Part shown: piece after piece, positions 53,386-61,644 of the stretch
Layout of the letters: each line of letters opens with the position of its first letter
How positions within the stretch are numbered: the stretch's first letter is position 1
NCBI RefSeq assembly: GCF_030028105.1
Contig: NC_092375.1
Coordinates: 14,721,537 to 14,785,536 of the forward strand
From: Mobula birostris
Lineage: Eukaryota
Length of the DNA: 64,000 nucleotides
Direction of reading: 5' to 3'
The notes under the pieces: model-generated
Seen by the model: only the letters and a program-made list of their open reading frames with translations
Databases searched by the model: none
What the model was told of the DNA's origin: nothing
Made by a program: the position numbers and the translations under genes

Positions 53386-53567
53386 GGGGTGCATGGGAGG
53401 GGTAGCAGCTCTAGATGGGGGGCTTGTCGCACTCTTTGGAGTGGCTCGTCATCTATTGGTCCCCACCAACGCCTAGCTCTCACCTGTGGCTTCTCGTAGC
53501 TGTTTGCATGCGACAGCGGCCACACCCCGGACAACGGCTTCCACAGGCCGGCTGAACCAGCTGAGGG
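53386..53567 (+). ncRNA. HDV-like self-cleaving ribozyme at RTE 5' end (variant with extra hairpin in L3)
   Basis: P1 GGGGUGC 53386-92 / ACACCCC 53522-28; P2 53477-87 / 53556-67; P3 GGC 53488-90 / GCC 53519-21; P1.1 UC / GG 53529-30; P4 CGGCUU / AGGCCG; J4/2 G-C-U-G-A with C at 53552. Confidence 0.65.
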
Positions 53568-55992
53568 TAGCCGACGGGTCTCAAACCCCTGGTGAGATAG
53601 GAATTTGCCCATCTCAACATGCACGCTTTGGTGGATCAGGCGGAGGAAACCCCAGGGGTTCAACGGCTGAGAAGGCGATGCAGCAGCGCATTGTGGAGTG
53701 CATAGGGTGCGGCAGAGCACTTAAAAGGACGCGGCCATCCAATGCAGCCAAGGAAGTTGCCGGACATAACGATTTTTTGTGCCACTGGATCCTGAATTCT
53801 GAGGCCGAGAGAGCGCGATCGTCTCTGTGCAAGGCTTTTCCACTTTAATATCTTTAAAGCACTGGTTACATCTCCCAACTTTCAATTCCTACCAGTCTTC
53901 TACGAGTCCTACGGCGATGGGGGAGTGGCGAAGCAACAGGTGGTGGTGACCACTGGGCGTTGTGGTCACAAACCCGCACATAGGCGGCCTTTGGGCAAGT
54001 GGTTATTCTTCTTTGTACCCAGAGCAGCAGAGGAGTCCGGCAGTACCAATGGCGACTGAGCATCCCTTTTCAGGACAGCACTGCTCATCCTTTGATAGGG
54101 AGGGGCCTAGAAAAGGTGGCCTAAACATTGCCTGCCCTACAGACAGATAACTGACCAGCTTGCCGCGGTTGGCAATTCATCCGCCAATGCGGTTACACTC
54201 AAAGAAGAAAGAAACTTCTGTTAGTATCATGGAATGTCCGCACACTCATGGACAGATAGAGCTCGGCAAGACCCCAAAGAAGAACAGCCCTTGTTGTCAA
54301 GGAACTTTCACACTACAACATCAACATCGCAGCCCTCAGTGAAACCAGGCTTGCGCAGGAAGGATCCTTGACTGAAACCACCAGCGGCTACACTTTCTTT
54401 CGGAAAGGAAAAGCGCAAGATGAAGAGAGGATTCATGGAGTTGGATTTGCAGTCAAGTCCAGCTTCCTGAAACAACTCTCCGACCTGCCCATGGGAATCA
54501 AGGAAAGGCTTATGTGGCTACATCTGCCCCTCAGCCACAAGCATCACGCAACAGTCATCAGCACTTATGCCCCCACTATGACCAACAAATACGAGACCAT
54601 TGAACTGTTCTACCACGACCTTAGCTCTGTTCTGCCAACAACAAACTAATCCTGCTCGGTGACTTCAATGCCCGAGTAGGCTGCGATCACTGTCGCTGGG
54701 AAGGGGTTCTCGGCAAGCATGATATTGGCAATATGAACAGCAACGGCCTCTTGCTCCTAAGCAGATGTGCAGAATACGACCTCCTCATCACAAACACAGT
54801 GTTCAGGCTGGCGAACAAGTACAAGACAACATGGATACACCCAAGATCCAAACATTGGCAACCGTTTGACTATGTTATAGTACATCGCCGAGGGATCCGG
54901 GATGTCCTTATCACTAAAGTCTTGTAAGGAGTGGAGCGCTGGACTGACCACAGGCTTGTCCGCACCACATTGAAGATACGTATTTCTCCCCACCATCCCA
55001 AGCACCCTAAGTTAATCAGAACAGCTTTTAACACCTCCAGACTCCAAGAGCCACTGTATCTTCAGAAGTTCCAGACCACCCTTGATGAGAAGCTGTCTGC
55101 CAACGGACCACTAACCGGTGGGCCAACCCAGAAGTGGAATCAGTTCAGAGACATGGTGACGGAGACAGAAAAATCAGTCCTCGGCCCCAAGGACCGGAAC
55201 CACCGAGATTGGTTTGACGAGAATGACAGTGTCATCAAGGATCTCCTGGCCAGGAAGAAGAAAGCGTTCATGGAGTGGCAAAATGACCCAAGCTCCATTC
55301 CCGAAAACCAGCAGTTCAAGTCCCTTCAGGCCCATGTCCAACGGGAAATTCGCAAGATCCCTGACCTGTGATGAGATAGGAAAGCTGAAAAGGTGCAACA
55401 CCTCGCCGACATCAACAACACGAAGCTGCTCTTCAACTCCATCAAGATGATCTCCGGCTCCTCAAGATCTGTCTCATCTCCACTGTTGTCCACTGATGGA
55501 ACCATACTGCTAAAGGACAAGGAGAGCATCCAACACAGATGGAAAGAGCATTTCAGACAGCTCCTGAACCGCCCTTCATTGGTCGACCAGTCTGCTCTGA
55601 ACCAAATCCCCCAACAGCCTATTCATGAGGAACTAGATGATCCTCCCTTGATAGATGGAGTCAAGAAGGCCATCACACAGATGAGCAGTGACAAGGATGG
55701 AATACCTGCTGAACTGTACAAGGCACTCAACAAGGAATCACTTGAGGCTCTTCACAGCACCCTGACTAGCATTTTGAAAGAAGAAGAGATGCCCCCGACC
55801 TCAGAGATGGAACGATAATCGCTCTCTACAAAAATAAAGGTTCAAGAACCAACTGCGGGAACTACAGAGGCATCCCACTACTTTCCATTGCCGGAAAAAT
55901 CCTTGCCCGCATCATCCTGCGAGATGATGTAAGAGGCTAAGGATTTCCAGCGAGAAGACATTTTATTCCTTGGAGTAGGAGAGAGGCCAGAC

Positions 55993-56039
55993 TGCGCAGG
56001 TGCGTGACGTCAGCCAGTTGAGCGCGAACAGTTTAAAAA
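55993..56039 (+). promoter_or_regulatory. Pol II promoter-like cluster in CR1 5' region
   Basis: NRF1-like TGCGCAGGTGCG 55993-56004, perfect CRE TGACGTCA 56005-56012, TATA-like TTTAAAAA 56032-56039, CpG-rich context. Confidence 0.55.
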
Positions 56040-56225
56040 GAAAACTGCCATATCCAGCGGGCAGCGTCGGAGCGGGCTGCGGAGTGAGAGGGTGCAGAGT
56101 GAAAGGGCTTTGGCCCAATGGGCTTCAGTGGAGACTGGAAGAGGCTTCCTGCGACCGTTGAGTCTCATAGTAACGGAGTAAGTTACAGTTTTTTGGTATT
56201 TGGTACAAACAGTAGCATTAGAGGT

Positions 56226-57082
56226 ATGCATCTAGGATTAGTGTTGTGCTTGGAGTGCCAGATGTGGGGACCCTGGGAGACTCCCAGCCTCCCCAAGGAT
56301 TACATCTGCACCAGGTGCACTGAGATGAGGCTCCTGAAGGACCGTGTTAAGGAGCTGGAGACGGAAGTTGATGACCTTCGGCTAATTAGGGTAAGTGAGG
56401 AGGTGATAGGTACTACCTATAGAGAGGTAGTGGATAGCACCCCTGTGACAGTCCCCCTCAGAAATCGATATATCGTTTTGGATACTGTTGAAGAGGCAGA
56501 CCTGACAGAGGAGGACCACAGTGAACGAGACTGTGGCATTCTGCCCAGCGCCGAAATCAAGACAGCAAGAAGAAATGCGGTAGTTATAGGGGATTCCATT
56601 GTAAGGGGGATGGACAAGAGATTCTGCGTGCCGGACAAGGATACCTGGATGGTGTGTAGCCTCCCTGGTGCCCAGGTACGGGATGTCTCAGATCGAGTCC
56701 AGAGTATTCTGAGGAGAGAGGTTGAGCAGCCGGAAGTCTTGGTACATGTTGGTACCAATGACATAGACAGGAAAAGAGAGGAGGTCCTGAAGAAAGATTT
56801 CTGGGAGCTAAGAAGAAAATTGAAAAGCCGGACCTCCAGAGTAATAATATCAGGATTGCTGCCTGAGCTGTGCACTAATGATGGTAAGAATAGCAGAATT
56901 AAGTAGATGAATGTGTGGCTAAGTAATGGTGCAGGGCGCAGGGCTTCAAATTCTTGAATCATTGGGATCTATTTTGGGGAAGGTATGACTTGTACAAAAA
57001 AGATGGATTACACCTGAGCTCAAAAGGTACTAATATCCTGGTGGGATTGTTTAATATGGCTATTAGGGAGGGTTTAAACTAA
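56226..57082 (+). pseudogene. CR1 ORF1: zinc finger/leucine zipper plus SGNH esterase domain, with premature stop (56904-56906) and frameshift
   Basis: CLEC..CTRC, heptad LKDRVKELETEVDDL, VVIGDSIVR, HVGTND, later DGLHL (57002). Confidence 0.9.
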
Positions 57083-57150
57083 GTTGGCAAGGGGAAGGAA
57101 ACCAAGGTGTTAGGGTCGAGGAAGAGGAAAATAGAAATAAGTCAAAAATA

Positions 57151-60030
57151 TTGTACAGCAAAGATGGCAAGGACAGGCCGGTGAATATACAGGATAATTT
57201 GCTGCAAAATAGAAATATAGCAAAATCGGCAACAGATACTGATCTAAATGTACTGTACTTAAATGCACGCAGCATTAGAAATAAAGTGGATGACCTTGCT
57301 GCACAGATGCAGGTTAAAAGATATGACATTGTGGCCATCACCGAGTCATGGCTAAATGATGGATGTGATTGGGAGCTGAATATCAAAGGATACACAGTGT
57401 ATAGGAAAGATAGGAAGGTAGGTAAAGGGGGTGGCGTGGCCCTGATGGTAAGTAACAATAACAAATCAATAGATAGAAGGGACATAGGATCAGAAGAGGT
57501 AGAATCCTTATGGGTAGAATTAAGAAATGGCAATAGCAAAAAGACATTAATAGCAGTTATACACAGGCATCCAAACAGCAGCCGGGATGTGGACTGCAAG
57601 TTGCAGCTGGAAATAGAAAAAGCGTGTCAGAAGGAAAATGTCAAGATAATTACGGGGGATTTTAATATGAAAGTGGATTGGGAAAGTCAGGAAGGTAATG
57701 GATCTCAGGAGAGGGAGTTTGTAGAATGCCTACAGGGTGGCTTTTTGGAGCAGCTTGTCCAGAAGCCCACCAGGAGACCGGCTGTTTTGGACTGGATGCT
57801 GTGTAACGAACCTGAGGCGATTAGGGAGCTGGAGGTAAAAGAACCCCTTGGATGTAGTGATCATAATATGATTGACTTCAGTTTCAAATTTGAAAAGGAG
57901 AAGCTGGTATCAGATGTATCGATATTTCAGTGGAACAGGGGAAATTACAGTGGTATGGCCCAAGTCGATTGGAAAAGTAAGCTAAATGGAGGGACGGCAG
58001 AGCAAAATTGGATGAAATTCCTACAAGAAATAAGGAAATTGCAGAAAAAATATATTCCAAGAAAAAAGAAAATCATGAATGGAAAAATGGCACAAATGTG
58101 GCTAACGGGAGAGGTTAAGGCAAAATTAAAAGCAAAAGAAACGGCATACAAGGAAGCAAAGATTAATGGGAAAAATGAGGACTGGAAGACTTTTAAAAAC
58201 TTACAGAAGGAAACTAAGAAAGTCATTAGGAAAGAAAATTTGAATTATGAAAGGAAGTTGGTGATTAACATAAAAAAGGATACTAAGAGTTTTTTTAAAT
58301 ATATGAAGAGTAAAAGAGTGACAAGGGTATATATGGGACCGATTGAAAATGATGCTGGAGAAATTATAATGGATAACAAAGAGATGGCGGAGGAACTGAA
58401 TGAGTATTTTGCATCAGTCTTCACAGTGGAAGACATGAGCAATATACCTGATAGCCAGAGGTATCATGGAATAGAATTAGGTACAGTCAAGATTACTAGA
58501 GAGAAAGTGCTTGGGAAGCTAAGTGGACTAAGAATAAATAAGTCTCCCGGTCCGGATGAGGTACACCCAAGGGTTCTGAAGGAGGTGGCTTTGGAGATTG
58601 TGGAAGCATTGGAAATGATCTTCCAGGAATCAACAGACTCTGGCATGGTTCCGGAGGACTGGAAGGTCGCAAATGTAGTTCCGCTATTTAAGAAAGGAAG
58701 GAGGCAGCAAAAAGAAAATTACTGACCTATTAGTCTGACATCGGTAGTTGGAAAGATATTGGAGTTAATCCTCAAGGACGAGGTTATGAAATACCTCGAG
58801 GTGCATGACAAGATAGGCCGAAGCCAGCATGGTTTCATGAAGGGAAGATCCTGCCTCACCAACCTATTGGAATTTTTTGAGGTAATCTCGAATAAGATTG
58901 ACAAGGGAGAGGCTGTGGAAATTGTGTATTTGGATTTTCAAAAGGCCTTCGATAAGGTGCCGCATATGAGGCTGCTTAATAAGATGAGAGCCCATGGAAT
59001 TATAGGAAAGATATTGAAATGGGTGGAGCATTGGCTGATAGGCAGAAAGCAAAGGGTGGGAATAAAGGGATCCTATTCTAATTGGTTGCCGGTTACTAGT
59101 GGTGTTCCGCAGGGGTTGGTGTTGGGGCCGCTTCTTTTTACGATGTATATTGATGATTTGGATTATGGATTAAGTGGTTTTGTGGCTAAGTTTGCGGATG
59201 ACACCAAGATAGGTGGAGGAGCAGGAAATGTTGAAGAAACGGAAAGGTTGCAGAGAGACTTAATCAGTTTAGGAGAGCGGGCAAAGAAATGGCAGATGAG
59301 ATACAACGTTGGCAAATGTATGGTTGTACATTTCGGAAGAAGAAATAATTGGGCAGATTATTATTTAGGTGGGGAGAAAATTCAAAAATCGGAAGTGCAA
59401 AGGGACTTGGGGGTCCTTGTGCAGGATACCCTAAAGGTTAACCACCAGGTTGGATCGGCGGTAGAGAAAACGAATGCTACGTTGGCATTTATTTCAAGAG
59501 GAATAGTGTATAAGAGTAAGGAGGTGTTGATGAGGCTCTCTGGGGCATTAGCGAGACCTCATTTGGAATACTGTGTGCGGTTTTGGGCCCCCTATCTTAG
59601 AAAGGATGTACTAATGTTGGAGAGAGTTCAGAGAAGATTTACGAGGATGATTCCTGGAATGCAGGGGCTAACATATGAGGACCGTTTGTCGGCTCTTGGA
59701 TTGTATTCATTAGAGTATAGAAGAATGAGAGGGGATCTCATAGAAACATTTCGAATGTTGAAAGGGTTGGACAGAGTAGATGTGGAAAGGTTGTTTCCCT
59801 TGGTGGGTGAGTCCAGGACAAGAGGCCACAGTCTTAGAATTAGAGGGTACCCAGTTAAAACAGAGATGAGGAGAAATTTTTTTAGCCAGAGAGTCGTGGA
59901 TTTGTGAAATTCGTTGCCACATACAGCTGTGGAGGCCCGATCATTGAGGGTGTTTAAGGAGGAGATTGACAGGTATCTAATTAGTCAGGGTATCAAGGGA
60001 TATGGGGAAAAAGCCAGAAATTGGAACTAG
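57151..60030 (+). pseudogene. CR1 ORF2: APE endonuclease plus reverse transcriptase, two in-frame stops only
   Basis: YLNARSI, ITESWL, GDFN, SDH; KSPGPD, YLDFQKAFDKVPH, GVPQG, FADDTK; TGA at 58723 and 59905 in one continuous frame to TAG 60030. Confidence 0.95.
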
Positions 60031-61644
60031 ATGGGTGAATAGTTTAGCTCATGGGGGAACTGCGGAGCAGACTCGATGGGCCGAAAGGCCTACTTCTGCT
60101 CCTTTGTCTTGTGATCTTGTGATCCTCAACAGACTGATTCCAACAGTGTCAGAAGAGAACCTTCCCAAGTCGCAATGCGGCTTTCGTCCCGAACACAGCA
60201 CTGTCGACATGATCTTCGCAGTGAGACAGATACAGGAAAAGTGCCTGGAGCAGAACAAGACATTATACTCTGTCTTCATTGATCTGATGAAGGCGTTTGA
60301 CATGGTCAACAGAAACGCGCTGTGGATCATCCTTAGAAAGCTTGGCTGCCTGCAGAAATTCACTGCACTCATCCGCCTGCTCCACGATGGCACGATAGGA
60401 GACGTGTTCTCAGATGGTTCCCCATCTGAGACTTTCAACATCTCAAATGGCGTGAAGCAAGGGTGCATTCTAGCGCCAGTGCTCTTCAACCTCTTCTTCA
60501 CCCAAGTGCTGAAGCATGCTGTTAAGGACCTAGACCTGGGTATTTACATAAGATGTCGTCTAGATGGATCGATGTTTGACCTGAAATGCCTTGCTGCAAA
60601 GACCAAAACGTTGAGGAGGCTCATCACTGAAGCCCTGTTTGCTGATAACTGTGCCCTCATGGCCCACCAGGAGAAACACCTGCAGACGATTGTCGACAGG
60701 TTCTCCGCAGCCTCAGAACTCTTCGGCCTGACAATCAGCCTCGGTAAGACAAATGTTCTTTTACAACCTGCACCAAACGGTCACCTTCCTTAGCCATGCG
60801 TCACCATCGATGGCACTGTCCTGAAGAATGTGGAGAGCTTCAAGTATCTAGGGAGCACCATCTCCAGTGACGGATCCCTTGACAAGGAGATCATAGCAAG
60901 GATCCAGAAAGCCAGCCAGGCACTAGGGAAACTCTGAGTCAAAGTTCTAGAGCATAAAGACATTCAGCTTTGAACCAAGCTCAAGGTGTACAAGGCTGTG
61001 GTCCTCACCTCTCTCCTGTATGGCTGCGAAACCTGGACCCTGTACCGCAGGCACATCAAACAGCTGGAGCAGTTTCACACGCGCTCTCTGAGGTCGATCA
61101 TGAGGATTCGATGGCAGGACCGAATCACCAACCAGGAAGTCCTTGACAGAGCCAACAGCACAAGCATTGAGGCAAGGATCCTCCAGGCCCAGCTACGCTG
61201 GACTGGCCATGTAATCCGCATGGGTGAAACAAGAATCCCCAGGCAGTTGCTCTACGGTGAGCTTTGTCATGGCAGTTGCAATCAGGGCCGCCCCAAAATA
61301 AGATTGAAAGACAATCTGAAATCGTACATCAAATGGGCAGACCTCCAGCCTCGACACCTTGAGAAGTCCGCAGCCGACCGGGCTGTGTGGCGCATCCTGA
61401 CCAGAAAAGCTGCATCTGACCTTGAGGATGACCGAAATCAGCGCCTTGCAGCAGCACGAGATCGACACCACAAAGCTGTGTATGCACCTGTCCTAACAAC
61501 CGCCATTCCATGTCCAACCTGCAACCGCATGTGTGCTTCGGCCTTCGGCCTCCGAAGCCACATGCGTATCCACAGATGACTGCATGATGTTTAGTCTTCC
61601 TCGGACCCTGAGAGACAACCGACTAGCAATAAATAATAACATTT

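Follow-up and report, generated by a model that had tools for sequence, protein, structure and literature searches.

We analyze a 64,000-nt stretch of the Mobula birostris genome (hereafter, the window), in which positions 53386..53567 hold the parts of an HDV-like ribozyme whose loop L3 contains an inserted hairpin. The interpretation that we favor, with fair confidence, is that this is the decayed 5′ end of an RTE-type LINE, headed by an HDV-like ribozyme in which the loop of the L3 hairpin forms a third pseudoknot. Comparison with related elements makes the HDV-like fold at the head of an RTE-type LINE very probable, and we predict with good confidence from their sequences that intact copies of the family self-cleave.

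Background

HDV-like ribozymes are established at the 5′ ends of RTE, R2, R4 and Ingi/L1Tc LINEs, as set out in the available sections of PMC6765202 and PMC5786205. The ribozymes of these LINEs and the one studied here are alike in the order of their elements, in their position at the first base and in their predicted release from co-transcripts; they also head bipartite non-autonomous RTEs, represented here by a family of ~560 bp (family B). The HDV active site is taken to include an L3 of constant length, 7-8 nt, and this length is built into those published descriptors that we examined, in the portions available. In the RNArobo supplement (PMC4870747, in part), for instance, L3 is written as TYYHCG N{0,1} Y or as TNCNCGY plus one base, and J1/2 has a maximum of 51 nt.

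Another point of reference is drz-Agam-2-1, a large HDV-like ribozyme with a P1.2, for which a structured J1/2 hairpin, short linkers and a long P2 are reported to give fast cleavage (PMC4908430, in part). The window family is alike in all three features as predicted here, with a P2 of 11-12 bp. The peripheral domain of drz-Agam-2-1 lies in J1/2, and the available part of its description mentions neither an L3 insertion nor a 3′ tertiary helix. A literature search found no L3 insertion, and none is described in the accessible portions of PMC4035085, PMC10879173, PMC13708176, PMC1874588 and bioRxiv 10.1101/2022.09.22.508989; Ruminski 2011, Webb 2009, Webb and Luptak 2011 or their supplements may describe one.

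Results and discussion

Parts of the ribozyme and its host element in the window

The first-pass annotation had placed all ribozyme parts in HDV order, and when we went through the region base by base the parse was exact. The parts, the downstream partner of the hairpin loop and the surrounding elements are as follows.

53386..53392, + strand: P1 5′ strand of the window copy; pairs with 53522-28 at 6/7 positions, terminal C.A
53393..53476, + strand: J1/2, 84 nt, predicted long P1.2-type hairpin
53477..53487, + strand: P2 5′ strand; partner is 53556-67
53488..53490, + strand: P3 5′ strand, GGC; 3′ side GCC at 53519-21
53491-53518, + strand: whole of L3, 28 nt; holds the 6-bp hairpin
53491..53496, + strand: canonical portion of L3, TTCTCG; fits TYYHCG, positions 2-3 are P1.1
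53499..53517, + strand: hairpin inserted in L3; 6-bp stem 53499-504/53512-17, 7-nt loop 53505-11
53506..53511, + strand: hexamer within that loop; 5′ side of the third pseudoknot helix as predicted
53519..53530, + strand: P3 3′ strand (53519-21), P1 3′ strand (53522-28), P1.1 GG (53529-30)
53531..53550, + strand: J1.1/4 and P4 hairpin of 6 bp; three P4 pairs with two-sided change
53551..53555, + strand: J4/2; fits CNRA (CUGA), C53552 at the catalytic position
53556..53567, + strand: P2 3′ strand; C53561 is decayed from G, one pair broken
53617..53622, + strand: hexamer downstream, partner to the loop of the L3 hairpin; decayed in the window copy
53386..55920, + strand: 5′ part of the RTE-type LINE, 5′ UTR and broken endonuclease/RT frame
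55921..60120, + strand: second LINE inside the RTE, esterase-like ORF1 and APE-RT ORF2; boundaries approximate
60121..61620, + strand: 3′ part of the RTE-type LINE, RT, C-terminal C2H2 finger and short 3′ UTR; end approximate

The dimensions given earlier stand as well: J1/2, put at about 84 nt, counts exactly that; the mismatch and bulge ascribed to P2 are a C.C mismatch and a bulged C; L3 does measure 28 nt and enclose a hairpin; and the C proposed for catalysis is the one that opens a CNRA-type J4/2. Decay of this copy had also been suspected, and this is borne out by its first 195 nt, where it departs from the subfamily majority at nine bases, among them the first P1.1 base (U53492, formerly C) and one P2 pair (versus the A majority); the C.A of P1, in contrast, is fixed in subfamily A and is not decay. 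The element no longer functions as a retrotransposon, but its ribozyme, though decayed, still matches TYYHCG and CNRA and may keep weak activity.

Folded alone as a nested structure, the region has ordinary stability (z -0.57); relative to the MFE of the core alone, the nested HDV arrangement is ~9 kcal/mol less stable, with P1 and P1.1 left uncounted in that figure, and a competing 5-bp P3 register is also predicted for the core. Across eight sequences the J1/2 hairpin is predicted at -37 to -48 kcal/mol, and P2 is long, 11 bp, in the aligned hairpin sequences. P1 has 6-7 bp and starts with G, pairing 7/7 in families B and C and loci L147 and L148 and 6/7 in subfamily A. J4/2 reads CUAA in the majority sequences of families A and B and CUGA in the window.

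The broken frames of the window are pieces of what its homologues carry as single APE-RT proteins of ~1,050-1,100 aa, one ORF with APE endonuclease and RT and no ORF1, an architecture for which we take RTE to be the clade name. On this architecture the window element would be an RTE-clade LINE. The LINE nested in it at 55921-60120, presumably CR1/L2-like, is near-complete: its ORF1 has a weak OSK match, its ORF2 is mostly open, and ~5 bp of the RTE are duplicated at the insertion.

Families in the same genome and support for the fold

Across the 4.0-Gb genome the core pattern matches 2,567 times, against 19 times for a reversed control. Four families with the L3 hairpin are present: A, the (sub)family of the window copy (29 best matches aligned); B, the commonest, mostly two-ended non-autonomous RTEs for which autonomous counterparts exist; and C and D, which are older, with majority sequences built from 9 and 8 decayed copies. 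Family majorities repair pairs that are broken in the window copy. Near-identical family A endonuclease matches are clustered within a few hundred kb on C38 and C5 of genome G000, which suggests segmental or tandem amplification.

Scores of at least 17 with a descriptor of our own were reached by 7/69 real RTE upstream regions versus 1/690 shuffles; the A, B and C majorities score 17.5-18.5 and the decayed window copy 0. Matches below 17 were taken as chance, because shuffles attain 13-15, and on this ground L164, L174, L175, L195, L199 and the long parse of L161 were set aside; L156 and L157 were retained as canonical ribozymes by eye. In an alignment of 10 hairpin sequences, 91.7% of the cells are paired, a level reached by 0/500 shuffles. 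Covariation across lineages, which the first-pass annotation had called for, is seen in part: five pairs show two-sided changes (two in P2, three in P4), whereas the inserted L3 stem has 0/6 pairs with two-sided change and four one-sided changes, and is weak in L176. P1 and P3 show matched pair changes in two siblings with canonical L3, L210 and L217. RNAalifold recovers the inserted stem, P2 and P4 and favors an extended P3; the canonical register is supported by family E of the same genome, in which a P2 perfect over 12 bp adjoins a 4-nt CNRA.

Several other searches were negative within their scope. Rfam gave no HDV-type match for the window or for 11 loci, and it also missed four canonical-L3 controls and L202. 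A canonical-L3 pattern run on the same genome gave 0 matches, the pattern being too strict, and family E, which has canonical L3, was reached afterwards via protein searches. Contigs of four RNA runs yielded no start sites and no additional covariation. In viral contigs we found no RTE relatives; there were 83 pattern matches there, and the one among those fetched with a longer core match was judged chance by eye. Two loci matched in prokaryotic genomes.

The hairpin inserted in L3

LINE 5′-end ribozymes have an L3 of 7-8 nt; here L3 is 24-29 nt in the hairpin relatives as in the window, with a hairpin and a predicted third pseudoknot downstream. By the 7-8 nt length that defines L3 in HDV-like ribozymes, neither the window copy nor its relatives belong, and we file them as a variant, not as canonical members, because L3 exceeds it. 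The suspicion that descriptors with a fixed short L3 would miss this structural subclass was justified: the published pattern TYYHCG N{0,1} Y excludes an L3 of 28 nt, and the RNArobo-supplement descriptors, in the part available, miss the family since both its L3 and its J1/2 (84 nt against a maximum of 51) are too long.

L210, L217 and family E have recognizably the same P2, P3, P1 and J4/2 frame and differ by an L3 of 7 nt, and since these siblings share the frame we read the hairpin as an insertion after the sixth L3 base. Such a position follows the six conserved L3 bases, and therefore U20.G25 and P1.1 could still form. The U, the second C and the G at the sixth position of L3 are invariant among the 10 aligned sequences, and positions 4-5 go beyond the descriptor in several of them. 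The final L3 base of HDV may be dispensable; a literature search found no paper on this point.

Other lineages

Among the best 80 of 517 metagenome RTE loci, five carry the L3 hairpin (L147, L148, L149, L176, L191), three of these with intact ORFs of ~1,100 aa; ~16, some of them near-duplicates, have ordinary ribozymes with a 7-8 nt L3 by eye, and many others are without 5′ ends. L153 and L202 were considered as a second independent L3 insertion and rejected, because comparison with L188, L218 and L220 shows a 7-nt L3 and a long P4 in them; both are counted as canonical. In endonuclease trees the hairpin and canonical types are intermingled, a pattern suggesting exchange of 5′ ends between lineages; deep support in these trees is weak, and they do not give the direction of gain or loss.

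Family E has six near-full copies with a normal 7-nt-L3 ribozyme. Most of its copies (L437-L454, minus L438, L441, L446 and L448) begin mid-P4 after a common GC-rich upstream sequence, which points to a subfamily that exchanged its ribozyme for another 5′ module, possibly a promoter. Upstream of the P1 strand, four further copies (L430-L433) have a pyrimidine-rich sequence in common in place of unrelated flanks. L197 (246-524) has an intact 1,081-aa RTE frame and keeps stems resembling P2, P3 and P4 as well as the hairpin and the partner hexamer, with P1.1 and CNRA lost; it is a possible non-catalytic descendant. In L221, ~580-1230, upstream of the ORF, is the reverse complement of an L218/L220-like ribozyme region.

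Probable pairing between the hairpin loop and a downstream strand

The hairpin loop consists of 1-2 bases and a hexamer flush with the 3′ strand of the stem, and a conserved hexamer lies ~45-70 nt past P2, directly before GAAG. In nine aligned ribozymes the two hexamers pair in 53/54 cells, with all four two-sided changes coming from L191, where two more perfect partners lie nearby. The pairing is also kept outside an intact ribozyme in three lineages: L197 (intact frame and hairpin, without P1.1 or CNRA), L159 (a matching hairpin 35 nt upstream, no core seen by eye) and family E (a module of its own, made up of hairpin and partner, downstream of the normal ribozyme). In E and L159, whose hairpins were located by searching (shuffle chance rates 0.02 and 0.23), the partner differs at one base and the loop is altered by exactly the matching base. 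Over all 12 lineages 71/72 cells pair, 62 of them Watson-Crick, and whole-partner permutation gives p 0.00045, or 0.0018 on 8 distinct types, values that are not true probabilities because the lineages are related.

In the window copy the first base of the partner (53617-22) has changed from G to A, with one pair lost, and a 5-nt deletion follows. L210 and L217 are without the downstream motif. Strict co-occurrence of L3 hairpin and downstream motif was rejected, as the L3 of family E is normal and the motif is present there all the same. These comparisons make it likely that the loop hexamer and the downstream hexamer form a third helix of H-type pseudoknot geometry.

Weighing other explanations

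The loop is palindromic in 7/12 lineages, and the complementarity between loop and partner is for that reason partly built in. The ribozyme could thus be real and the hairpin a passenger, with the loop-downstream match a short palindrome conserved at both sites separately, a view to which the motif beside a normal-L3 ribozyme in family E and a partner that is not dependably single-stranded (often predicted locally paired, with an unpaired probability of 0.17-0.77) lend weight. We nevertheless consider it unlikely: wherever the partner has clearly changed (E, L159, L191) the loop has changed to match, and in five lineages self-pairing of the loop falls to 4/6 while pairing with the partner stays at 5-6/6. 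The same five lineages, lacking perfect self-complementarity and still pairing with the downstream strand, speak against the loop driving dimerization through loop-loop kissing between two element RNAs, which, despite the self-complementary loops of the other seven and the L3-mediated dimers in CPEB3 ribozyme crystals (bioRxiv 10.1101/2022.09.22.508989, in part), strikes us as extremely improbable.

A third helix that forms could also act on the ribozyme itself, as a peripheral brace or as a timing switch that would allow fast cleavage once the downstream strand is transcribed and docked. It would connect a core loop with the strand leaving P2, and peripheral domains are known to accelerate HDV-like ribozymes, by as much as three orders of magnitude (PMC4908430, in part); yet the P2/P4 frame is shared by close siblings that have a 7-nt L3 and no such helix, and hairpin and partner are kept where the core is lost (L197), not seen (L159) or elsewhere in the element (E), and we hold such a role to be improbable. 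More doubtful still is that the insertion inactivated the ribozyme and the fold was kept for a non-cutting purpose such as 5′ protection or protein binding, the sharp 5′ end then being due to an internal promoter. L3 does belong to the active site (PMC4908430, in part), L197 combines an intact ORF and scaffold with the absence of a catalytic core, and the P1 mismatch fixed in subfamily A counts against activity because such mismatches lowered the activity of R2 ribozymes (PMC3774820, in part). Against it, U20, the P1.1 pairs, G25, C75 and CNRA are kept across hairpin lineages whose proteins are ~50-65% identical, family C copies differ among themselves at the second J4/2 base, a variation that CNRA allows, and element ends fall at the first G of P1.

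Start of the element and a doubled P1 strand

It had been proposed that P1 starts at the first base of the element. The window copy does start at 53386, but the usual start of the family is 9 nt upstream: the P1 5′ strand is tandemly doubled, with repeats 9 nt apart, and 53386..53392 is the second repeat, the window copy being without the upstream one. Full-length copies reaching beyond 53386 had been named in advance as evidence against the ribozyme, and many do extend 9 nt further; since that extension is a second P1 5′ strand, the main predicted cut moves and the ribozyme is not refuted.

In family B, 71/82 distinct loci among the matches listed (first on contig C1), chosen by the core pattern alone, span the start of J1/2, and the upstream repeat is present in 61/71. 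TSDs of at least 8 bp (n=39) end at -9 in 15 cases, at -8 to -6 in 11 (partly shared Gs), further upstream in 10, at -3 to -1 in three and at 0 in none. Repeat 1 is absent from 18/29 A copies versus 10/71 B copies (Fisher p 3.5e-6), and the TSDs of two short A copies end exactly at repeat 2 (position 0); for the window copy we found no TSD longer than 5 bp. Folding of the leader alone predicts, for B, C, L147, L210 and L191, a free repeat 1 and a repeat 2 that closes the long J1/2 hairpin. L148 gives an intermediate result and L149 an ambiguous one, and either of the two identical repeats of A can take either place (0.52 vs 0.59). It is plausible, from copy ends and predicted folding, that the main cut of the family falls at -9 and that 53386 is a second site in subfamily A.

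R2 ribozymes, for which a model of P1-segment duplication is published (PMC3774820, in part), are alike in that their P1 5′ strand is duplicated in tandem, which gives a choice of two cut sites, and the inner copy can decay into J1/2. The R2 duplicate comes from the 28S target, whereas here it is element sequence, with the inner copy predicted to be recruited into the J1/2 stem.

Some junctions deserve separate mention. In five family B copies (L043, L046, L050, L051, L115) extra bases lie between the TSD and repeat 1, and these are suffixes of the repeat, up to a complete third copy, which suggests that the end of the new cDNA moves back from repeat 1 to repeat 2 and copying resumes there; such slippage could regenerate a lost P1 strand. 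Repeated P1 5′ strands also occur in canonical-L3 RTE ribozymes at L167 (1-90) and L222 (1516-1527), as GT arrays and a 5-nt tandem, and the doubling may be general among RTE ribozymes. L039, L048, L139, L438 and L446 are 5′ inversion junctions, with the 5′ part inverted relative to the remainder.

A proposed sequence of events

Starting from the sequences, part order, copy ends and covariation described above, we propose how folding, cleavage and the third helix might act in the element cycle. Read-through transcription would cross the element, and the ribozyme would free the element RNA from longer host transcripts. J1/2 would fold as a long P1.2-type stem closed by repeat 2, leaving repeat 1 for P1, and the C at the first J4/2 position would catalyze a cut 5′ of the first G, giving copies their sharp 5′ end. 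In subfamily A either repeat could serve, because the two are identical, and copies would start at -9 or at 0 (53386). The P1.2-type hairpin and the long P2 would help cleavage, and the L3 hairpin would be tolerated at the loop's 3′ end. The loop hexamer would then pair downstream in H-type geometry, with a first loop of 1-2 nt and no gap between helix and stem. The chemistry can probably do without this helix; because the helix persists outside intact ribozymes we assign it another job, likely a protein-binding, translation or RNA-stability step of the element cycle.

Conclusions

The element family at 53386 is probably headed by a ribozyme that is HDV-type and 5′-processing in its working, non-canonical in its L3 length, and joined to a third pseudoknot with a role of its own. 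More tentatively, and at a little less than an even chance, we suggest that these elements form an active class of triple-pseudoknot HDV-like RTE ribozymes in which the L3 hairpin is one half of a mobile 5′-UTR H-type signal that outlives the ribozyme.

If the ribozyme is active, L3 would join J1/2 and P4 as a third place where insertions are tolerated, and a widespread group of ribozymes in animal retrotransposons would have been overlooked, with thousands of copies in this genome and five among the best 80 RTE loci. The bimodal 5′ ends of subfamily A offer a natural readout of cut-site choice. The conserved loop-downstream helix is a precise, mutable target for roles of RTE 5′ UTRs beyond cleavage, roles that bear on gene-writing systems built on RTE UTRs (PMC13708176, in part). 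If the mobile signal is real, it would point to a cis-element, so far undescribed, that serves RTE translation or the recognition between RNA and protein and is physically built into the site of self-cleavage.
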